Positions 1 through 10,831 of a stretch of DNA of 64,000 bases are shown piece by piece. The notes beneath the pieces were generated by a model that did no database searches, was not told the DNA's origin, and was given only the letters and a program-made list of their open reading frames with translations. The translations under genes were made by a program, and so were the position numbers. The DNA is from Plasmodiophora brassicae (lineage: Eukaryota). Numbering within the stretch: the first letter of the stretch is position 1; each line of letters starts with the position of its first letter. Location of the stretch: contig CP145413.1 in NCBI GenBank assembly GCA_036867785.1, forward strand, positions 992,001 through 1,056,000, given 5' to 3'.

Positions 1-311
1 ATGCCGCGTGCATCTCGCATACAATGGTTCTCGACAGCCAGTAGCACTTCCGCTCGTGAGGAACGGGACGGCATACGTATACATGCCATGATGCAGACGA
101 CGCCGATCCCCGGTTCGGGTGTGCAATACCATGTACGTAGGTATAGCCTGCCGCGTCAAGCAACCCGTCACTGGTGGCGGTCAACACAACCCTGTTCAGT
201 GTTCACGAACCCGACGAGCCGTCGGCCGAGCACACTGCTGCTGCTGCTAGTCTATAGACTGATAGTCGGCCCCGCGGCCTGAGCCCTGAGCCGGTGTACC
301 TGGCGCCAAGT
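1..311 (-). pseudogene. Copy 1 (partial) of a disabled host gene 'gene A'
   Basis: Closely similar direct copies at about 2246-2500 and 4057-4319. The minus-strand frame has an in-frame TGA, and the copy breaks just short of the ATG seen in copy 3. Confidence 0.6.
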
Positions 312-1069
312 AGGTAGATTTCCTTCACATACTCCACGTCCCATACGAGACATGTTGCTTGCGGATCTGCAGATCCCCAGCACGCGTATGCAAGAGGATG
401 TCTACTTGGATCTCGTGGGTGGCCTGTTCCACTGCTTCCTCGCTATCCGCCAGAATCAACTTGGTGTCTCCCGAGATGCATCCTGCATAACCTCTTGGCA
501 ATTGCCATGGTATCAGTGTTCTGTTAGCCCACTGTCTAGTATGGCTGGCCGCGGCTCATCCAGCGCTGATAGCGTGACATTGATCTGGTTGTTGGCGCCC
601 TGTGCATATCCAGCCTCTTAACTTGCAGATTTTGGAGTTCTCTGTGCTCGTGCGTCTATCTGCGTTTGCAGCTTACTCGCCCCTCACCTCTTGCATGCCA
701 GGTGTTGGGTGTTCGGCGGCTTCTTCTGCATCCCCAGCGCACTCGCGACTCCATTCCCCTCTGCCTTCCATTGAGTGTTCGCCCGTGCATGGCTCATTGC
801 CAACAGAGCCGGCATTCTTCTGGGATTTATTCGATCGCTTCGATTTCATCTTCTCGAAGGTTTTGTTCTTCTGTTCTTCAGTTGCCTTCGAGCAGTCTCT
901 CAGCGTGTGCGGACCGTTGCAGAACCAGCACTTGGGTTTGCGTTCGGCAATGTCCGACTTTTGCCTCTTGGGGTCGGCACGTTCTTCCGGACCTTCCGGG
1001 TTGGCACTGGCGTCGGTCTTCAGACGTCTCTTGCCTCCGCTCACCTTCTTGAGCGGCGTGACCGTCTCG
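312..1069 (-). mobile_element. Ty3/gypsy-like LTR retrotransposon fragment: gag C-terminus plus degenerate aspartic protease
   Basis: Zinc knuckle CWFCNGPHTLRDC (CX2CX3HX4C). Downstream on the minus strand is AILDSG (LDSG at 528-539), then a frameshifted ILLHTRAGDLQIRKQHV segment. Confidence 0.7.
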
Positions 1070-1682
1070 AGCAGGACGAGACAGTCGAACAAGGACGAGA
1101 CGGTCACGCCGCTCAAGAAGGTGAGCGGAGGCAAGAGACGTCTGAAGACCGACGCCAGTGCCGACCCGGAAGGTCCGGAAGAACGTGCCGACCCCAAGAG
1201 GCAAACGTCGGATATTGCCGAACGCAAACCCAAGTGCTGGTTCTGCAACGGTCCGCACACGCTGGGAGACTGCTCGAAGGCAACTGAAGAACAGAAGAAC
1301 AAAACCTTCGAGAAGATGAAATCGAAGCGACCAAATAAATCCCAGAAGAATGCCGGCTATGTTGACGGTGAGCCATGCACGGGCGAACACTCAATGGAGA
1401 GCAGAGGGAAATGGAGTCGCGAGTGCGCTGGGGATGTGCGCACCTCGATCGTGTACCCGCTGCCGAACCTGACGACATCCGCTCGTCAGCATTGCTGAAC
1501 GCCCTGGGGGCCGACTGCGCTCGACGACGTCGAGAAGCCGCCGAACACCCAACACCTGGCACGCAAGAGGTGAGGGGCGAGTAAGCTGCAAACGCAGATA
1601 GACGCAGAGCACAGAGATCTCCCAAGTCTGAAAGTTAAGACAACTTGCAGCAGACAATGAGGCTGGATATGCACAGGGCGCC
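594..1682. repeat. Long imperfect palindrome 1 (arms about 594-1069 and 1096-1682, 26-nt spacer)
   Basis: Arms are reverse complements (gagcggcgtgaccgtctcg ... cgagacggtcacgccgctc), giving mirror ORFs on both strands. The right arm carries about 95-nt and 18-nt segments missing from the left. Confidence 0.95.
1070..1682 (+). mobile_element. Inverted copy of the gypsy-like gag C-terminus
   Basis: KPKCWFCNGPHTLGDC in ORF 602..1498; reverse complement of 594-1069. Confidence 0.7.
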
Positions 1683-2500
1683 ATGGCCATAACGCGGACG
1701 AAGGCACGCTCAGTACCACCGGGTTCAAGTCGTCATCGATGCGGACCCGAACAACGCTAGCGTTCGTCACGATGTTAGTATAAAGTTGGGAGTACACTTT
1801 CAAAGAAATAGAAAAACGTTACCTGAGAGGCTGGTCCCGAAGAGACTGGCCTTCAAGTTTGCACATTACGCCCCATTCCTGGTCACTGCCACAGGGAACG
1901 AACGCGAACACGGTCCTATCTTCGTCAGGATAGATGCGGGCGTCGGTCCTGGCGATCAAGTCGAAAAGATCGGCCGGCGTGGTAGTCCCGGGTAAATTGG
2001 CTACCTCAGACATGTCAGCGATTAGCATATGACGACTCCAGGATGCGGTTTGGCAAACATATGACGCAAAGCCGGTTTCCGGGTACCAGCAGGGGGTCAT
2101 CGGCAACGGGGCGTTGTACCTGAACCCGGGAGGCGGCCTCGCTGTTAGTAACGACTGGTTCCTGAACAATACCATTCGCTTATCGAACTGCTCGCTCCCA
2201 TTGATGTGTCTTTGAGACAGAGACCCGCGTGTTGACTCATGTGAAATGTCGCGTGCATCTCGCATACAATGGTTCTCGACAGCCTGTAGCACTTCCGCTC
2301 GTGAGGAACGTGACGGCATACATGCCATCATGCAGACGACGCCGATCCCCGGTTCGGGTGTGCAGTACCATGTACCTAAGTATAGTCGACAGCGTCAAGC
2401 AATCCGTCACTGGTGGCGGTCAACGCGACCCTGTTCATTGTTCTCGAACCCGACGAACCGTCGGCCGAGCACGCTGCTGCTGCTGCTGCTAGTCTATAGA
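1677..2500 (-). pseudogene. Copy 2 of gene A, including an intron and part of the next exon
   Basis: Direct repeat of 1-258 and 3852-4270. Minus-strand intron gtaacg...ctaac...ctag at about 1821-1757. In-frame TAG and indels relative to the other copies. Confidence 0.6.
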
Positions 2501-2503
2501 TAA

Positions 2504-3270
2504 TCCGGACCTTCCGGGTTGGCACTGGCGTCGGTCTTCAGACGTCTCTTGCCTCCGCTCACCTTCTTGAGCGGCGTGACCTCTCGTCCTTCTTCGACTG
2601 TCTGGTCCTGCTCGCCTCCTTCGCGGCCACCATCTTCTGATAGTGCCGGACTTCGTCGAACATCACAGCCTTCTCCCCAACCAGTTTGAGCAGCTGGCGA
2701 GAGTCGGTTCTCAGCTCCTTCATGCTGGTCTCTGTGATTTCGGTGACGGTCTCCCTAAGCTCGTCTGGCGATATGCCGCGTAGCAGCAATTTGACCTTGA
2801 GCTTTTGGCCCTGTGCACCTTCGAACATGTGGTGGCAGGCGTGCTCTTTCACAAGTCTCGCGAACTGCGCGCCGTAGTCTGCTCCCCGTGCTGCCGCTTC
2901 TGGGATGCTTCTCTTCATCCGCATTTCTCTGAACGTGTCGACGAACTTTATACCGCTCTTCGGTGTTGTCGTTGTCATGCGACGTTCGAGCATTTCCAGC
3001 AACACGTCGTCCGGGATGTTGTCGGCCGTGTAGACTTCATCCACCCCGTCCAGCGTCATGAGGGAAGCGGCCAGAAGGTGCTCATCTGCCATCGTCCGCA
3101 CATCTGCCTCGACGTCGTTCAGCCCCGATTCGCTCATACTTTGCCGGTACAGCTTGTACTGTCGGAACCACTTGACCAGCGCGGCTTGCCCTGAAGACGT
3201 TAGGTTTGGCTTCCTGTTGTCCTCGTCCTTCTGCACGAGATTTCTCAGTTGGACCATCTTCGTCCTTGTC
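2504..3270 (-). mobile_element. Gypsy-like gag N-terminal two thirds (232-aa ORF, frameshifted before the zinc knuckle)
   Basis: ORF 2559..3257 runs into the same sequence as 986-1069. A 1-nt deletion (gagaggtc versus gagacggtc) separates it from the knuckle frame. Confidence 0.65.
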
Positions 3271-3855
3271 AGAAGATGGTGGCCGCGAAGGAGGCGAGCA
3301 ACAGGAAGCCAAAACTAACGTCTGCAGGGCAAGCCGCGCTCGTCAAGTGGTTCCGACAGTACAAGCTGTACCGGCAAGGTATGAGCGAATCGGGGCTGAA
3401 CGACGTCGAGGCAGAGGTGCGGACGATGGTAGATGAGCACCTGCTGGTTTCCCTCATGACGCTGGACGGGGTGGATGAAGTCTACACGGCCGACAACATC
3501 CCGGACGACGTGTTGCTGGAAATGCTCGAACGTCGCATGACAACGACAACACCGAAGAGCGGTGTGAAGTTTGTCGACACGTTCAGAGACATGCGGATGA
3601 AGAAGAGCATCCCAGAAGCGGCAGCACGGGTGGCAGACTACGGCGCGCAGTTCGCGAGACTTGCGAAAGAGCACGCCTGCCACCATATGTTCGAAGGTGT
3701 ACAGGGCCAAAAGCTCAAGGTCAAGTTGCTGCTACGCGGCATATGGCCAGACGAGCTTAGGGAGGCCGCCGCCGAAATCACAGAGACCAGCATGAAGGAG
3801 CTGAGAACCGACTCTCGCCAGCTGCTCAAACTGGTTGAGGAAGAAGGCGGTGATG
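2661..3855. repeat. Long imperfect palindrome 2 (arms about 2661-3219 and 3299-3855)
   Basis: Mirror ORFs 2559..3257(-) and 3249..3932(+) encode nearly the same protein. Confidence 0.95.
3269..3855 (+). mobile_element. Inverted copy of the gypsy-like gag N-terminal region
   Basis: KPKLTSAGQAALVKWFRQYKLYRQ...QLLKLV, reverse complement of 2661-3219. Confidence 0.65.
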
Positions 3856-4323
3856 CGGTTTGGCAAACATATTACGCAAAGCTGGTTCTGGGTACCAGCA
3901 GGGAGTCATCGGCAACGGGGCGCGGTACCTGAACCGGGGACGCGGCCTCGCTGTTAGTAACGACTGGTTCCTGTACACTACCATTCGCCTTATCGAACTG
4001 CTCGCTCCCATTGATGTGTCTTCGAGACAGAGACCCGCGTGTTGACTCATGTGAAATGTCGCGTGCATCTCGCACACAATGGTTCTCGACAGCCTGTAGC
4101 ACTTCCGCTCGTGAGGAACGGGACGGCATACGTATACATGCCATGATGCAGACGACGTCGATCCCCGGTTCGGGTGTGCAATACCATGTACATAGGTATA
4201 ATCGGCCGCGTCAAGCAACCCGTCACTGGTGGCGGTCAACACGAACCTGTTCAGTGTTCACGAACCCGACGAAGCAGCCCAGCGGCCTGAGCCCTGAGCC
4301 GGTGTACCTGGCGCCAAGTCCAT
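3852..4323 (-). pseudogene. Copy 3 of gene A with its putative start (ATG 4323, MDLAP then a GTACAC donor)
   Basis: Direct repeat of 2042-2455 and 1-311. It has an internal deletion and an in-frame TGA, and lies head-to-head with the gene at 4396. Confidence 0.55.
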
Positions 4324-4395
4324 TTTGGGTGGACCGGCGCCTCTGGCAGCGTGCACAGTGCGGGGGCGCCCCCACGTCGTGTGCGACTGGCGCCC

Positions 4396-5816
4396 ATGCA
4401 GTTGGGAAATTTTGGGCCGCTGACTGAGGCGATGGTCGACGACGGTGCGCCGCTGTCCATCAGTCATGCGGTGCTGGACGGGGTCGAACGTGGCGACAGC
4501 CATGCCGTCGCGCAGATGCGCACGCTAATCGTTCAGGCGCACGAGCAGATCGCGACGCTCGAGGTTCGTGCCGAGGCGCGCGCGATCGCATGCGGAGCGC
4601 TGATTAGTGGCAGAACCTGAATGCGCGGCTACGCGACAGAGTGAGTAAGCTCGTCGCAAAGGGGACTGAAATCGAGGTGACGTCCACTCGCCCTGACGCG
4701 GCATGAGTGTCTGATCTGAGTGGGGTAGAACAAATTGCTGGAGCTGAAGAGCGCTCCAAGTAAAGATCTCGATGCACTACAAGAGCAAATGCAACGACGA
4801 AAGGACCAGGTCGCTGCGATATGCTGCAGCGGCGACATGCCCTGAATTTGGTGTCTATGTAGATGGATCATACGCTGGCCGAGCTCGTTGAGCAGAACAG
4901 CAGGCTTCTGCTGGAGAAGAACGTTCTCGAAGGCATAGTCGAAGATAAAAACAGGAGACTAGTTGAGGTGCAAGCTGCCTATCTAATGATGATGGTCAGC
5001 CAGTTCAGTCGATTGATCATCCGCCAATATGACTCATATTGTGCTGACAGGATAAGATCGAAGCTCAGAAAATAGTTCTAGATCAGTCCCACGCGCGTTC
5101 TCAAACCATTAGTGACCAGCTCAAACAATACGAAAGCCAGCTTCGAAATGTCTCTGAAATTCAACTTGCTAACCAGGGACTGCTTGACCAGTACTCCAAA
5201 GACGGTACGACGCCACCGTGCAAGTTCCTGTCACCTCTTGACTGTATGTGCCCAGTCCAATGCGAACGTGAAGAATCTGCTACTTTGAGAAACGCGAATG
5301 ATGAGCTTCAATGTAAGGGGGCGTTTGTCGTGGTCAGGAATCACGCCTGAGTTCTGCTCCGCAGTGCAGATTGCCAGCCAAGCCGGCTACCTTACTCGAT
5401 CGCAGCAACGTATTTCAGAACTTGAAGCAGTCGTTTTCCGGAGGCAGAAAGAAGATGCTGGCGACGACCAGTTGCTGAAAGAGCTCAGGGACAGCGGCGC
5501 CCAGGTTGACCGCAGCATAGCCGAAGTCGGCGCCCGTGAAAAGAAACATGTCGACGACCTGTGCAGGTTCAGCTCATTTGCAGCACAGCTACTGCAAAGG
5601 ACGACACAAAACGCAGAGTGCCAGACGTTGGTGACGCCCGATCCGGTCCCAGAAGAGTGTCGAAAGCTCGCTATTGAGGCTCCCGTTCCCGTGCCCGAGG
5701 CACCAAGCATCACCGCATGCCCCACAATCTGTCCGACCGTCGAGGTAACGCCACCGGCTGATCCCGTTGCAGACGAACTGCCACAGCCGTCAGAAGAAGC
5801 CAGATCGGGAAGCTGA
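4396..5816 (+). CDS. Multi-exon coiled-coil protein of unknown function
   Basis: Several short GT-AG introns join heptad-rich exons (MDHTLAELVEQNSRLLLEKNVLEGIVEDKNRRLVE; QQRISELEAVV); Pro-rich tail. Confidence 0.6.
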
Positions 5817-7202
5817 GTATTATCATTCTCCTTCAACGGTCCTTTGCCAAATATGAGACCATCGTCTGCCAAATGTAATTTCCAAGGCGTGTATCTTCAA
5901 CAGTTGCCTTCCAGCTTTGGTGTGGTGCACGGTCGTCTCGTGCGGCAGTTGCAACCGGGGGTCGGCACGATTGTGTCGTTAAGGGGACACCGATAAGCCC
6001 CATGTAACCGATGGCACTAACCGTCGGTAAATACGTCAAATGGCGTAGGTTCACTCTAACCATCAGCAGCCATCCCTAATTCCTAGCCTGTGTCCTTCCC
6101 AGGGTTGTTGAATCGCTGAACAGCTCCCGTAACGGCACTTGCTTGGCATGCAGCCAGCGTCGATGGGGCACCAGACGAGCCATGGGTCAGGCTCGCGACG
6201 ACTGGTTAGACCCGTTCATGCATCGTTGGAACATGCCGGACGCTACGACCCGGCGTCCCACCAAGTGAGCGCGCAGGAAGATAACATGTCACCAGCGACG
6301 TCATCGAGGACATCGCCGGAGCTGACTTCACTTCGCTCCGTTGGCCGGATTGAGGCGCGTCCGCCGCGCCGGCACTCGTGGCTGAACGCGCCGTTTCCGC
6401 CCAAATAGCAGCAGGAGCTTCAGAGTGTTCCACCCACGTCGCACAGGCAGGAGAACTCCTGAATCGTCGACTGGAGCAGAAGAGTGCTGGGTAGATAACG
6501 TCTCTGGGCATTTACGTACAACTATTCAGTGGCTGAGCGGCCATTTTGAATTCTCCGTCGGGCGATGCCACAGAACGGGCGTCATCTGTTGATGGGCGTG
6601 CCAGTTTCAGGGGGTCCATGTCGGAGATACGAACGGCCGTCTGCCTGCGATCCACGTCGCGCAGGTTGACCTCTGTCGATGAGTTCGAATTCGTGTTCTG
6701 CCTGCGCGGTACTACCATGGCCACTCGGCCATGCAACGACGATGCGTTTGCTGTCCCCCTATGATTGTGGCCGGTCGGATCTCAGACATGGCTCCCCTGG
6801 TGCTGCTACACCTCGCTGAATGTGTATGGTTAATGTTGGTTATCAGCAGGAGGTATGACGTCTCTTGTATAGAATGAAATTGGATCAAGCAAGGCCGTAT
6901 CCATCGAAAGCAGCAATGTTGATTTGCAGTCGTGCGACGCCTGCCTCGTTGGGAGACTGCGCCCAACGCCACGATTGACGTCCAGCGCGCGGGGGAATAC
7001 CTAGCCAGCCGAATGCGCCGCGACCCGGCTACCGGCATCTGGGGCGGCGGATCGGATCCTGAGCGGGGCGCCACTCGGGGTCGAGGGTCGGCGTTCGGGC
7101 CCCAGTCGTTGGCTGGCTGGCGCTATTTCTGGCGGCCGCCCAGGTCGATTGCAGCTGCGCACTTCTCCACCGCGGTTCCCGTCGTCGCCAGCGCAGTCGG
7201 CG

Positions 7203-9174
7203 ATGTCGCCCCGTGATGCCAGCAGCCGACGCGGGCAGTGCTGCGGCAAGCGCACCATCGAGTTCCTGTTCTACCAGCACATCGGCGCTCTGGTAACGTG
7301 CGTCGTTGCTGCCGCTCGCACCTAATCTCATGACGACGATGTCCCCCAGGTCTGCACGACGACGCTCGCCATTGCGGTCTGGCTGGTGATCCGGCATGCG
7401 CACCTGGAGACGTGGGAGACCGCCCACGGGTGGGCGACCTCGTACCGGCAGATGATCATTCTGACGAAAATGTACCCCAAGATCCATCAGTACGCGCACG
7501 ATGGGTCGCTGAGCGCCGGCGATCGCCGCCTGCTGCTCGACGATATCCGGTTCGAATCCCGGAATTTCACATCCGAACACGACGAAGTCCACGCTCGCGA
7601 TCGCGAGAGATTCCGCCAGCTTACCAATGCCGACACCGACGCGATACAGGCGTGGATCACCGCCGTCGACGCGTTCATCAAGAAGGCGGAGACGCCACGC
7701 GTCTGGATGTCGGCTGTGAGGCCGCTGGCGGATGCGGCCATCTGCCCGTCCGTCGTCGACCCGTGCGAACAGGCGCTGGTGAAGGTCATGAACCTGTACA
7801 CGGAAGCCATGTACTCGATCGGCGAGATGCGATACGACCTGGCCGGGATGGTGTTCCTCGCCCTGCTGTGCGTCCTGAGCATCGGGCAGATGTTCCTCGT
7901 GCGCGCCGAGTACACGCAGCAGTTAGCGACGATTCAGCTCGCCGAAGAGCTCGCCAGCGTCATCCATGACGTGCGCACGCCCCAGCAAGTCATCGTGTCG
8001 GCGGTGGCGTTGCTGACGCAGCCGGGCACGGCGGACACCACTAACGCGCACGATATGGTCCAGATCATTGCCGATTCGTGCACGGCCACGCAGCGCCTGC
8101 TGGACACCGCCCTGCTGCGCATTCGCTCGCGAGCCGCACCCGAACCTGTCCCGCTGGCCGCGTTCTTCAAGGACATCTCCAGCGTCCAGAGCGCCGCCTG
8201 TCGCGACAAAGGCATCCTGTGGCGCTGTGATCTGGCGCCTTCCGCATGCGTCTCCGTCTTTGTCGACTCCGATGCTCTTCTTCAGATCGTGGTACGTCGT
8301 TCGCCTGCTGGTTTCGTTCTGTGTCCCGATCGCTAACGTGTCGCGCCGCCAGAGCAACCTGGTCTCGAACGCTATCCGGTACACGTCGAAAGGGCATGTC
8401 TCGCTGCAGGTCTCTGTTGATGCCCCCGAGCAACGCAACGTATCGTGGATGCAGCGGTTGCGGTCGTCGAAGCACCTGCACACGCTCGTGGTCAGCGTGT
8501 CCGACACCGGGTGCGGCATCCCGAAGCACGCCATGCCGCTCGTGTTCCGAAAGTTCCACCAGGTGAAGTCGGGGACCGGGTTCGGCATCGGCCTGTTCAC
8601 GGTCGCCCGCCTGACCAGCTCGCTGCGGGGCGGGATCGACCTCTGGAGCGAAGTCGGCAAAGGCACCCGGATCGTCGTCCGCGTCCCCGTCGTCCTCGTG
8701 CCGTCATCGGCGACGTCCGAGGGCGACGACAACGCGCTCATGGCTCCCGAGCCGAGCTCGCCAGACGACTACCCGCCCAGCCTGACGGCGAGGAGCATAA
8801 CGGCGCTGAACATCATCCTGCTCGACGACGACCCCGTCACGTTGAAACTATCGAAACGGATCCTGGCCAACGCCGGGCACTCGGTCCGCACGTTCTCCCA
8901 TGGGGAGACGCTTCTCGAGCAGTACGACGACGCGGACGTCATCGTCACCGACCTGAACATGTCCGGGTCGATGAGCGGGTTCCAGGTGGCCGATCGCCTG
9001 CGCGCCATCGGGTACCGGGGCGCCCTGATCGCGCACACGGGCGACCGATTCGCCTACAACGCCTGCCTCGAGCACGGGTTCGACGCCCTGCTACCGAAGC
9101 CGTCGAGCGCGTCCACGTACGTCGCCACCATCGAATCCGTCCACCAACACAAGTGCTCCTGCCCATCGTCCTAA
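7203..9174 (+). CDS. Membrane-bound hybrid histidine kinase (2 TM, HisKA, HATPase_c, receiver)
   Basis: H-box HDVRTP, N-box NLVSNAIRYT, G1 DTGCGIP, G2 GTGFGIGL. Receiver motifs LLDDD, DVIVTDLNM, HTG, KP. Introns about 7293-7349 and 8292-8352. Confidence 0.9.
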
Positions 9175-9298
9175 ACGTCATCCTTATAAACCCTCTAAGT
9201 GTATACTGCTACAGGAGGGGCATGAGTCACGTCGGGTTTGCAGCGGAACGTGACGTTAGCCATGCACGAAGCGCCACTCCCCAAAATCGGGCAGGGCA

Positions 9299-10678
9299 AT
9301 GTCGATGATGCCAACCGGGGACGGCGATGCCGGTCTGTCGAACGATCGCCAGCGACGACCTGCCACCACCTTCGTCATCGTGTTCGTCGCCGTCACCGTT
9401 GCCTCCTCGCTCCTGATCCGGTTCCTGGCCGACCGGTTCCCAGCCGAACCGTCGCTGTCGCCAGCGCCCCCTCCCACCCAGCAACAGATCATCGCCGATG
9501 CGAACGCGCTCGCGTTCGACGACGCCGGTCGTTTCAACCTGACCGGCACGGTCGAGTCGTCCGCGGTCTCCTACGTCGACGCGATCCGCGTCGAGTCGTT
9601 CGACGACGTCATCGTCCTGCAGGTCGTGCGCCCCGAGCGGGTCGTCGACGACGGCCGCGACCTGCGCCTCGTGGTCTCCAGCGCCGGCCGCTTCGTCGAG
9701 GCGCGCCCGCGGTCCATGACGACCGGGGCGGCGCTGCTCGTGCTGCGCCCCGCACTGCTGACGTCGCTGTGCGGGTCGGCGCCGTGCCGCGTGACGGTGA
9801 CCGTTCACACGGACCGGACTGCGCCGCTGCAGTCCCCCGCCGGGTACGTCCTGTCCGGCGTGCGCGCCCGCCTCATGAGGGCGGACAGGCCCGTGTCGCA
9901 GTTCCTTGCCGGCGACGGCCGGGCCGCCCTGCTGGCCGTCCAGACGCAGCGAGACGGCGCCGACGTCGTTGTCGATGGGGCCTGTGCGGCGCCGGTCTTC
10001 GTGGGCGCCATCGGCGAGACGGACCTGAAACGGGACCGCGGCACGCTGCTGGACATCGTGGATGGTCGGCCCGGGATCCAGGCCGACCATTACAGGTTGC
10101 GGGTTGGCCATGACCTGTTCGTCATTGCTGTGCGATCGAAGGCGCCATGCGTCGTCAAGGTCGACGTTCGCAGTGGGGCGATCGCTCGGCGTGACGAGGG
10201 AGACCTGCGCCCGACCTGGAGCTGGACGTTCTTCGGCAGGACGTTGATCCTGGCCGTCGTCGTGTTCTGCCTTGTGATGCCGACCGTCGTAATGCTGTTC
10301 GCGTTCAACAGGCCGGCGCCGGCGTCCCCAGCTGACATCGCCGCCGCTGTCGCCATGGAGGACCATCGTCGCCGAAGGAACCAGTCAGCGCTGGGGTCGT
10401 TCCCGGCGGTTCGCGTGCGGCCTGAAGATCGCCTGCGCCTGGCATTCGGCGAAGAGAACCGCTGCAGCATCTGCCTGGATGTGTACGCTGTCGGCGACAT
10501 GGTACGAGACCTGGCCTGTGCACATCGCTTCCACATGGACTGCTGTGACTCTTGGATCATTGACAAGGGGCAGTGCCCGCTATGCCTGCAGGACGTCGGC
10601 AGCGCTGTCGACTACCATCGTCGGCAGGGCAGGCGACAGCAAACGCCGACCCGCACGTGCTCATTGCCGATGTTTTGA
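9299..10678 (+). CDS. Transmembrane RING-H2 E3 ubiquitin ligase
   Basis: CSICLDVYAVGDMVRDLACAHRFHMDCCDSWIIDKGQCPLC; two hydrophobic segments; single 459-aa ORF. Confidence 0.9.
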   Translation: MSMMPTGDGDAGLSNDRQRRPATTFVIVFVAVTVASSLLIRFLADRFPAEPSLSPAPPPTQQQIIADANALAFDDAGRFNLTGTVESSAVSYVDAIRVESFDDVIVLQVVRPERVVDDGRDLRLVVSSAGRFVEARPRSMTTGAALLVLRPALLTSLCGSAPCRVTVTVHTDRTAPLQSPAGYVLSGVRARLMRADRPVSQFLAGDGRAALLAVQTQRDGADVVVDGACAAPVFVGAIGETDLKRDRGTLLDIVDGRPGIQADHYRLRVGHDLFVIAVRSKAPCVVKVDVRSGAIARRDEGDLRPTWSWTFFGRTLILAVVVFCLVMPTVVMLFAFNRPAPASPADIAAAVAMEDHRRRRNQSALGSFPAVRVRPEDRLRLAFGEENRCSICLDVYAVGDMVRDLACAHRFHMDCCDSWIIDKGQCPLCLQDVGSAVDYHRRQGRRQQTPTRTCSLPMF

Positions 10679-10831
10679 TACACATTCATTTCCGCCCGAC
10701 AATATCTGAGGGGTCTTGGTGCACGCGGCGCCGACCGATCGAATCTTCAACGTCGGGCCGTCGTATGGCGCGTTACCGGACGTGTGCCCGTCATTCGTCG
10801 AATCTAACCGTCGGTGACGACAGCGACGACG

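Follow-up and report, generated by a model that had tools for sequence, protein, structure and literature searches.

The stretch of DNA analysed here, referred to as the window, comprises 64 kb of Plasmodiophora brassicae contig CP145413.1 (GCA_036867785.1, positions 992,001-1,056,000), and all coordinates are relative to the window. Positions 1-4323 contain two fold-backs of retroelement gag sequence, IR1 and IR2, which alternate with three minus-strand front-end copies of a small gene (gene A). A previous reading of this region, made from the letters only, had proposed the order A1, IR1, A2, IR2 and A3 with the gene A copies pointing leftwards, and both the order and the orientation were borne out, with A1 at 1-311, A2 at ∼1686-2500 and A3 at 3852-4319. 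To the right of A3 follow a unique spacer of 76 nt (4320-4395), which lies outside the duplicated unit, and exon 1 of gene B (4396-4561, plus strand), an expressed and spliced gene running towards a hybrid histidine-kinase region. Five inverted repeats of at least 60 nt were found in the whole window, every one within the IR1/IR2 locus, and a BLAST search with positions 1-4500 returned 18 non-self matches, all confined to 1-4319.

IR1 (593-1683) consists of a left arm (593-1082) carrying a C-terminal portion of gag in the sense orientation on the minus strand, and a right arm (1083-1683) carrying the same segment in the sense orientation on the plus strand, with the loop at 1070-1095. The arms are identical at 462 of 485 aligned positions (95.3%). 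A stretch of 92 nt in the right arm (1437-1532) has no counterpart in the left arm, and on the other side a minus-strand stretch (312-592) continues the gag reading direction beyond the left arm without a partner in the right arm. IR2 (2661-3855) contains an N-terminal, capsid-like portion of gag; its left arm (2661-3231, minus strand) lies inside an open frame of 232 codons (2559-3257) and its right arm (3287-3855, plus strand) inside one of 227 codons (3249-3932), with 549 of 575 positions identical (95.5%). The arms are separated by a 55-nt centre (3232-3286), and the segment 3248-3300 resembles inverted 2609-2661 at 83%. On its outer side the IR2 left arm is extended (2504-2660, minus strand) by gag running into the part also found at the centre of IR1, as BLAST aligns 2504-2614 with 1179-1068 at 96% and 2504-2586 with 986-1069 at 99%.

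Gene A belongs to the PBTT_03701 family (E 3e-27, 87% identity over exon 2). A2 (1686-2500) is a whole pseudogene copy on the minus strand, comprising an upstream region (2202-2500), exon 1 (2201-2059), an intron (2058-2001), exon 2 (2000-1823), a second intron (1822-1757) and exon 3 (1756 to ∼1686). Using PBTT_03701 as a tblastn query, residues 9-48 matched A2 at 92.5% (exon 1) and residues 48-123 at 68%, and both GT..AG introns are retained at the positions found in PBTT_03701. A3 is truncated to 17 nt of intron 1 (3852-3868), a frameshifted exon 1 (3869-4001; 88% by tblastn) and the upstream sequence (4002-4319), which has a 50-nt deletion relative to A1; the exon boundary at 3869 agrees with spliced RNA contigs of a paralogue. 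A1 is represented by a 5′ upstream region (95.4% identity to 4056-4272, 97.7% to 4277-4319), and its coding part lies to the left of the window edge, such that the array may continue leftwards. The proposal that all copies are disabled is borne out for A2, which has a frameshift after codon 7 and no longer has its stop codon, and for A3 (frameshift, ending 17 nt into intron 1); of A1 only the upstream 311 nt are within the window. Because the gag pieces are joined to duplicated 5′ portions of gene A, each fold-back follows immediately downstream of the upstream region of one gene A copy and directly adjoins the next.

Palindromes belong to the known errors of long-read assembly, and the window starts inside the array with its left side out of view. 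Both points would be compatible with false palindromes generated by chimeric long reads. However, the arms are not identical, differing by 23 (IR1) and 26 (IR2) arm-specific substitutions plus several indels. Moreover, an independent DNA run from a different strain (X20; 0-6 differences per 242-344 nt among the gene B contigs listed) contains a contig in which 3232 is joined to 3299 on the opposite strand, which is the IR2 fold-back junction, and across the outer junction of the left arm of IR2 its contigs agree exactly with the window. The presence of the junction in a second strain argues that the locus is not an assembly artefact, and we consider that explanation highly improbable. The cluster is a real, fairly old rearrangement shared between strains of P. 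brassicae, and it documents a route of origin, namely fold-back inversion together with duplication of the front end of a neighbouring gene.

The folded-back sequence is a low-copy gag of the LTR-retroelement type, with the capsid-like part in IR2 and the knuckle part in IR1. A phmmer search of 1.84 billion representative proteins gave 19 matches at E <= 1e-3, the best at 3e-10 with 27% identity; the library matches cover query residues 15-209 and are ∼300 aa long, and tblastn placed gag homologues on both IR2 arms. An Atlas lead pointed to Retrotrans_gag and Ty3_capsid clusters (scores 0.87-0.90). Both IR1 arms encode a CX2CX3HX4C motif (CWFCNGPHTLxDC) that aligns with the knuckle of the 296-aa homologue P0003 (E 7e-5 and 1e-4). 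This CCHC-type knuckle has one residue fewer between its second and third ligands than the classical CX2CX4HX4C pattern, and a CX2CX3-4HX4C knuckle was present in four of the five full-length homologues retrieved. The suggestion that the two fold-backs jointly span gag was largely substantiated, as residues 8-192 of P0003 fall on the IR2 arms and residues 258-289 (the zinc knuckle) on the IR1 arms (tblastn). Pfam gag models (Retrotrans_gag and relatives) had no match in the four arm reading frames even at E <= 1, and no Pfam gag family was found at E <= 0.01 in the 18 of 19 homologues scanned (the 40-aa P0008 was left out).

The sequence-only reading had assigned the element to gypsy and part of IR1 to a protease; both labels are tentative. 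A gypsy element is defined by the pol order PR-RT-RH-INT and by flanking LTRs. The locus holds neither pol nor LTR sequences, and there is no other copy of the element in the window. Translations of 312-592 and 1437-1683 contain no clear D-S/T-G protease motif, 312-592 had no tblastn match at E <= 1e-3, and the protease parts of P0010 and P0019 had no tblastn match in the locus; one of the retrieved gag homologues showed a sub-threshold aspartic protease match. Full-length elements, for which a search had been proposed on the basis of the hairpins, were not found in cognate form among the 1.84 billion representative proteins or in a metagenome scan. A close full-length gag was likewise missing from the library, where matches longer than 40 aa are all at most 32% identical and the closest by identity is a 40-aa fragment at 72%. 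The X20 run contains a gag variant (record 5) with 12 differences in 195 nt that matches neither arm (one of six listed differences has the left-arm state), which suggests that near-identical targets may exist.

Gene B, with its ATG at 4396, had been described as apparently intact, and it is real: spliced contigs were present in all three RNA runs placed on 3232-5400 at a 90% threshold (X1, X2 and X8; IR1 lies outside that range). They define exons at 4398-4561, 4612-4674, 4727-4807 and onward, separated by GT..AG introns of 50-56 nt, and they start at 4360 (X8) and ∼4394 (X2). A gene A paralogue was expressed in the same proportion of runs (3/3), indicating that the family promoter is active somewhere. 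The sequence-only reading had placed the gene A start codon at 4323 on the minus strand, 72 nt from that of gene B, and had taken this spacing as a sign of a shared promoter. Homology with PBTT_03701 puts the A3 start codon at 4001 (minus strand) and makes 4002-4319 upstream sequence; because the start codon had been misplaced, the shared-promoter argument loses that footing. Between 3232 and 3868 no RNA contig was placed in the three runs, a region to which a left-arm contig would also map at 90%; such holes prove nothing.

A single RNA contig covers the A3 upstream region (4034-4398, in one of three runs, X1), and it is continuous with spliced plus-strand exons of gene B. An upstream start of gene B therefore explains it no less well than leftward transcription would. 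The same contig hints at initiation on the plus strand within the A unit, and it raises the possibility that transcription of the hairpins runs rightward (plus strand), starting in or next to the upstream regions of A1 and A2 and continuing into IR1 and IR2. The arrangement agrees with this, as the fold-backs are placed with respect to A1 and A2 just as gene B is with respect to A3, whose upstream region stands back to back with gene B. A strand-sensitive comparison of mismatches also weakly favours the plus strand over the minus strand for IR2: read on the plus strand, the arms show 13 G:U versus 4 A:C mismatches (two-sided binomial p ∼0.05, with no correction for the two tests made), and folding is predicted to be 36 kcal/mol more stable for the plus strand. 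However, IR1 shows no strand bias (7 versus 7), the strand cannot be read from the RNA contigs themselves, and the usual start of gene B (4360, ∼4394) lies in the 76-nt spacer outside the duplicated unit. We regard rightward transcription of the hairpins as unlikely.

Whatever the direction of reading, transcripts of the fold-backs would be expected to form long duplexes. Predicted stems are ∼445 and ∼545 bp from either strand; minimum free energies are -1008 to -1193 kcal/mol, long-range pairs number 443-548, and helices run for 93-141 bp without interruption. The small RNAs of P. brassicae are 90.3% 21 nt in length and phased with a 2-nt offset, and its Drosha-like nuclease PbDRL cuts long dsRNA into 21-mers in vitro (PMC13547706, 2026). 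For isolate PbJS the same report lists 435 phased loci, and its Figure 2G legend refers to a palindromic region generating small RNAs (PMC13547706). It describes P. brassicae as having no RdRP (RNA-dependent RNA polymerase) and the source of its dsRNA as unknown, leaving open the origin of the precursors for 78,890 annotated siRNAs (PMC13547706).

In this setting, the fold-backs could plausibly supply double-stranded RNA to the silencing machinery. RNA polymerase II read-through of either fold-back, in either direction, would yield a nearly perfect stem of ∼450-550 bp, the kind of long dsRNA that PbDRL would cut into 21-nt RNAs for PbAGO1 and PbAGO2. A genome-encoded hairpin would then provide siRNAs directed at copies of the element that carry gag, and in an organism without RdRP it would be their most economical source. 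Our main reading, that this is a real gag fold-back cluster whose transcripts would form stems feeding the 21-nt siRNA pathway, is given a probability of roughly 45%. The proposal of a Mu killer-like hairpin locus thus keeps its anatomical part, inverted retroelement duplications that each lie leftward-downstream of a promoter-bearing gene A 5′ copy, and loses the support of the 72-nt spacing. In a weak check against published miRNAs, none was recognised by eye in the arms among the 225 rows of Table S8 seen, and three that were pattern-searched gave no match.

Several of these observations would also be expected of an inert scar, in which fold-back inversions and segmental duplications, grouped around a fragment of a dead retroelement and a small gene present in duplicate, drift neutrally and any small RNAs are incidental and targetless. 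The divergence between arms looks neutral (with 8.5 synonymous against 17.5 non-synonymous changes, dN/dS is 0.61 and cannot be told from 1), and it is alike, at 4.5-4.7%, for both fold-backs and the A1/A3 pair, as from one burst of rearrangement. The pseudogene state of A2 and A3, the even G:U count of IR1, the lack of an intact cognate element in protein libraries or metagenomes and, for what such a hole is worth, the lack of an RNA contig on the IR2 arm point in the same direction. Against this, a second strain retains the structure and each hairpin adjoins a copy of a promoter-bearing gene fragment. Furthermore, given active AGO and PbDRL and the phased 21-nt RNAs reported from palindromes (PMC13547706), a transcribed stem of 500 bp could hardly escape processing, and the X20 gag variant leaves room for near-identical targets. 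We consider the inert scar a credible account that falls somewhat short of an even chance; if nothing is transcribed, the locus is a well-preserved rearrangement scar.

Should the siRNA reading be true, genome-encoded fold-backs of transposon genes would answer where the dsRNA for transposon-directed siRNAs comes from. The locus provides a clean test case, since its 23 + 26 arm-specific positions allow public small-RNA libraries to reveal both the strand and the arm of origin. Looking further, it is conceivable, albeit doubtful, that P. brassicae, which is without Dicer or RdRP, hard-wires its retroelement defence as "promoter-capture" modules, stacked arrays in which a gag fold-back is coupled to a duplicated, promoter-bearing front end of an expressed host gene, with such loci as its source of dsRNA.

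A close precedent in design is maize Mu killer (Muk), a partial inverted duplication of an autonomous transposon gene beside a host gene, for which read-through from the flanking gene was proposed to give a long hairpin serving as siRNA substrate (PMC3440606). The P. brassicae locus shares the inverted duplication of part of a transposable-element gene, here as two gag-like fold-backs. Muk derives from a DNA transposon (mudrA and TIR), forms one hairpin of ∼4 kb and is backed by genetic proof of dominant trans-silencing (PMC3440606), whereas the P. brassicae locus, known from its sequence, has two separate retroelement gag hairpins of ∼0.5 kb, each with its own duplicated gene fragment. The hosts also differ, as P. 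brassicae is without the plant-type Dicer and RdRP pathways.

To our knowledge, Trypanosoma brucei, another parasitic protist, also lacks RdRP. Its AGO-bound endogenous siRNAs arise from retroposons, large inverted repeats, pseudogenes and convergent transcription units; it uses two Dicer-like enzymes where P. brassicae has a Drosha-like enzyme, and the abstract of that study does not describe the inverted repeats as gag fold-backs coupled to duplicated gene 5′ regions (PMC3447711). Drosophila hpRNA loci are likewise long inverted repeats; they originated when their targets were duplicated, and they produce endo-siRNAs against selfish genes without an RdRP; unlike the putative function considered here, theirs is genetically proven, depends on Dicer-2 processing and is directed at meiotic-drive genes rather than transposon gag (PMC10317233, PMC10292708). 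Also close are the palindromic small-RNA loci of PbJS, fold-backs in the same organism that feed the 21-nt pathway (PMC13547706); relative to what is described of them, only in the IR1/IR2 locus do fold-backs alternate with three front-end copies of a host gene.

The sequence-only reading had claimed two large palindromes at this locus of Plasmodiophora brassicae, and a repeat search and self-BLAST both recovered them, far beyond chance. The first, IR1, occupies 593-1683 and has a loop of 26 nt (1070-1095). When aligned globally, its arms are identical at 462 of 485 aligned positions (95.3%), with 121 gap columns, chiefly a 92-nt stretch (1437-1532) found only in the right arm. The second, IR2, spans 2661-3855 with a 55-nt centre (3232-3286), and its arms are identical at 549 of 575 positions (95.5%). 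The left arm of IR2 extends outward to 2504, and its last 110 nt there are 96-99% identical to the inner ends of IR1. A 78-nt stretch of the IR1 left arm (986-1063) is 100% identical to part of this extension (2504-2581), while the surrounding arms are ∼95% identical, which may stem from gene conversion or from copying at a later time. A second unit alternates with the palindromes and is present in three direct copies (1-311, 2042-2500 and 3852-4319; 89.7-95.4% identity). All 18 non-self BLAST matches of 1-4500 lie inside 1-4319, and every inverted repeat of at least 60 nt in the entire 64-kb window (5/5) falls in the array locus. The analysis drew on the 64-kb window, public protein libraries, contigs of public sequencing runs and published papers.

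Palindromes of this kind could be produced by the assembly itself, an explanation that we consider highly improbable here. The arms differ by 23 (IR1) and 26 (IR2) substitutions plus indels. Moreover, the structure reappears in the public run X20, taken as DNA because introns and spacers are covered without spliced joints, and as another strain because 0-6 letters differ per 242-344 nt in the listed contigs of gene B, the plus-strand gene with its ATG at 4396. One X20 contig connects 3232 on one strand to 3299 on the other, as expected of a contig that passes out of the loop into the opposite arm; contigs were aligned at a threshold of 90% likeness, where joints below 95% can stem from repeats, and the shorter side of this joint comprises 39 letters. 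In addition, extra letters in X20 contigs reproduce the outer sequence of the window's left arm exactly (2579-2608 and 2644-2674).

The arms were identified through the 232-codon open frame of the IR2 left arm; a search of 1.84 billion representative proteins with this frame gave 19 matches at E <= 1e-3 (best match E 3e-10 with 27% identity, none reaching 1e-10). Most of these proteins are ∼300 aa long, and four of the five full-length matches inspected contain a CX2CX3-4HX4C knuckle close to where the gag part ends. Two matches, P0010 and P0016, continue for at least 200 residues further, and another, P0019, has a sub-threshold aspartic protease match (21 bits vs a cut-off of 24.3). By tblastn, residues 8-192 of the matching protein P0003 align to both arms of IR2, and its knuckle (residues 258-289) aligns to both arms of IR1, which read CWFCNGPHTLxDC. 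The proposal that the two hairpins together span almost all of gag is therefore correct. Pfam gag models found no match in the arm ORFs, nor in the 18 homologues scanned, and a language-model Atlas offered no more than a lead (0.95-0.97 for oomycete hypothetical clusters, 0.90 for Retrotrans_gag clusters). Taken together, these comparisons support the assignment of the arms to gag of LTR-retroelement type. For the protease, there was no clear D-S/T-G motif in the translations and no tblastn match to the locus. As to a putative target of the hairpins, protein libraries contained no close full-length gag, the one closer match being a 40-aa fragment at 72%, and a metagenome scan with a single gag protein returned 90 pattern matches with 0 confirmed. 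X20 carries a gag variant that agrees with neither arm.

The units between the palindromes belong to minus-strand copies of gene A (A1, A2 and A3). A protein-library search with the gene A ORF gave a single match in 40 candidates (E 3e-27), to PBTT_03701 from Plasmodiophora brassicae, a 127-aa protein listed at NCBI as 'Uncharacterized protein'. Pfam gave no match on PBTT_03701 and nothing relevant on the gene A ORFs; the Atlas gave a lead only, with RRM-like clusters scoring 0.90. A2 retains the complete gene structure on the minus strand: exon 1 (2201-2059), a 58-nt GT..AG intron, exon 2 (2000-1823), an intron of 66 nt and, from 1756 to about 1686, exon 3; the stop codon is lost, and a frameshift follows straight after codon 7. 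A3 consists of 318 nt of upstream sequence, a frameshifted exon 1 (4001-3869) and 17 nt of intron, followed by IR2. Because A3 retains upstream and intron sequence, genomic DNA was duplicated, rather than a retro-copy inserted. The start of gene A had been placed at 4323, but homology of A3 exon 1 to PBTT_03701 puts it at 4001, so the promoter argument built on a start near gene B needs revision. Of A1, the window contains just the upstream part; the coding part is to the left, and further array possibly lies beyond that edge.

Spliced contigs from all three public RNA runs (X1, X2 and X8) match A3 exon 1 (3869-3997) at ∼93%, with a following exon 2 reading as PBTT_03701, and one of them extends about 760 nt past exon 1; therefore an intact gene A paralogue is expressed. 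This paralogue is possibly A1 itself, just left of the window. In X20, an additional base at 3990 opens the reading frame of one gene A copy (MGASQFDKANG...), and the copy adjoining gene B retains a CTG-repeat segment (4273-4301) that is deleted in the A3 of the window, so the integrity of gene A copies varies between strains. A plus-strand ORF of 85-138 codons (MxRASRxQWFSTA...), which may be coding or due to chance, is open in all three gene A upstream units (1-282, 2246-2503 and 4011-4427).

Read on the minus strand, each module comprises, in order, the gene A front end, an antisense gag segment and a longer sense gag segment. The two sense pieces overlap by ∼110 nt and look as if they had been cut from one element. 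Because a short unique spacer sits at each centre and each outer end is joined to foreign sequence, we infer fold-back inversion: a break would have been followed by inversion, twice, and then by rejoining into copies of the neighbouring gene. The two fold-backs show similar divergence (4.5-4.7%) to A1 vs A3 (4.6%). A2 has diverged by 8-10% and is older than the fold-backs and the A1/A3 pair.

To the right of the array, spliced contigs of X1, X2 and X8 (three studies) define gene B exons from 4398 onward with introns of 50-56 nt; contigs start at about 4394 in X2 and 4360 in X8, and one RNA contig is 5336 nt long. ORFs downstream of the start encode HATPase_c and Response_reg domains (8272-9174) and a RING finger (9299-10678), and gene B (in the region 4396-10700) may encode a hybrid histidine kinase, the RING finger possibly belonging to a separate gene that follows it. 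Exon 1 of gene B carries two insertions in X20, one of 8 nt directly after 4396 and one of 3 nt after 4447, which jointly would shift the frame unless the start codon of that strain differs.

RNA contigs were aligned to 3232-5400, a stretch free of long internal repeats that takes in the IR2 centre and right arm, A3 and the first part of gene B. Among public runs, 20 listed entries matched part of the stretch searched, at shares of 0.09-0.28; the shares of X1, X2 and X8 are larger than their aligned contigs account for, and some sequence of 1-3231 may therefore occur in these runs too, though this does not count as evidence. The only RNA evidence touching the array is an X1 gene B contig that reaches upstream to 4034 with 0 differences, crossing the spacer and then 286 nt of the upstream region of A3. 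This extension is compatible with an upstream plus-strand start of gene B or with a leftward transcript overlapping the gene B start; contigs give no strand, so it does not separate the two directions. No contigs of the three RNA runs were found on 3232-3868, a gap in contig cover that carries no weight against transcription.

The sequence of either strand is predicted to fold into a long stem, with 443-548 long-range pairs and uninterrupted helices of 93-141 bp. Selection on a hairpin would be expected to make arm differences favour G:U over A:C on one strand. The IR1 mismatches are balanced (7 vs 7), and those of IR2 favour the plus strand (13 vs 4; two-sided p ∼0.05 without adjustment for testing twice), a weak bias that speaks against the leftward model. 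Both IR2 arms contain open frames, and their dN/dS of 0.61, based on 26 changes over 181 codons, cannot be told apart from neutral drift following in-place duplication. Both the G:U asymmetry and the dN/dS are too weak to settle strand or selection. That the array is an inert scar of rearrangement is a credible alternative, which we hold at somewhat under even odds.

A 2026 paper on RNAi in P. brassicae (PMC13547706) describes a pathway that could use such a stem. There, 90.3% of small RNAs are 21 nt, phased and with a 2-nt offset; long dsRNA is cut into 21-mers in vitro by the Drosha-like nuclease PbDRL; and PbAGO1 and PbAGO2 silence. The organism is described as having neither Dicer nor RdRP, the dsRNA source for its siRNAs is reported as unknown, and small RNAs arise from a palindromic region. 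Knock-down of PbDRL or the AGOs with dsRNA has already been carried out there. Its Table S5 lists Gypsy-type elements as the largest repeat class (983 elements), and its Tables S6 (435 PHAS21 loci) and S7 (49 repeat loci) place their entries only by coordinates of the PbJS assembly. Many phased loci in its Table S6 are closely paired, 50-700 nt apart (e.g. PHAS21-343/344, 373/374 and 382/383). Such pairing is what fold-back arms with a silent loop would give, and provides a lead for inverted repeats as a dsRNA source.

Given this machinery, a stem of ∼500 bp, if transcribed, would almost certainly be diced in P. brassicae. The structure is real, and its functional reading is reasonable but putative: we assign a probability of about 0.45 to the array being a hairpin siRNA source, direction open, with leftward and rightward transcription about equally likely within that reading. 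None of the miRNAs in 225 rows of Table S8 was recognised in the arms in a non-rigorous comparison by eye, and a pattern search allowing up to 3 mismatches gave 0 matches for miR223, miR103 and miR104, the latter two chosen because they come from paired phased loci whose geometry is similar. Judged by titles and abstract openings, a literature search on P. brassicae retrotransposons and inverted repeats found no work on hairpin loci of the parasite. Small-RNA libraries of five life stages and RNA-seq libraries are public (SRA reference number 1080080 in PMC13547706).

If functional, the array would act like maize Mu killer (PMC3440606), Drosophila hpRNAs (PMC10317233, PMC10292708) and the siRNA loci with inverted repeats in Trypanosoma brucei (PMC3447711). 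It shares the inverted duplication with the Mu killer kind; a read-through transcript, siRNAs and trans-silencing are putative for this locus. Distinctive of the P. brassicae locus is the array, in which each hairpin is preceded by a duplicated front end of a host gene.
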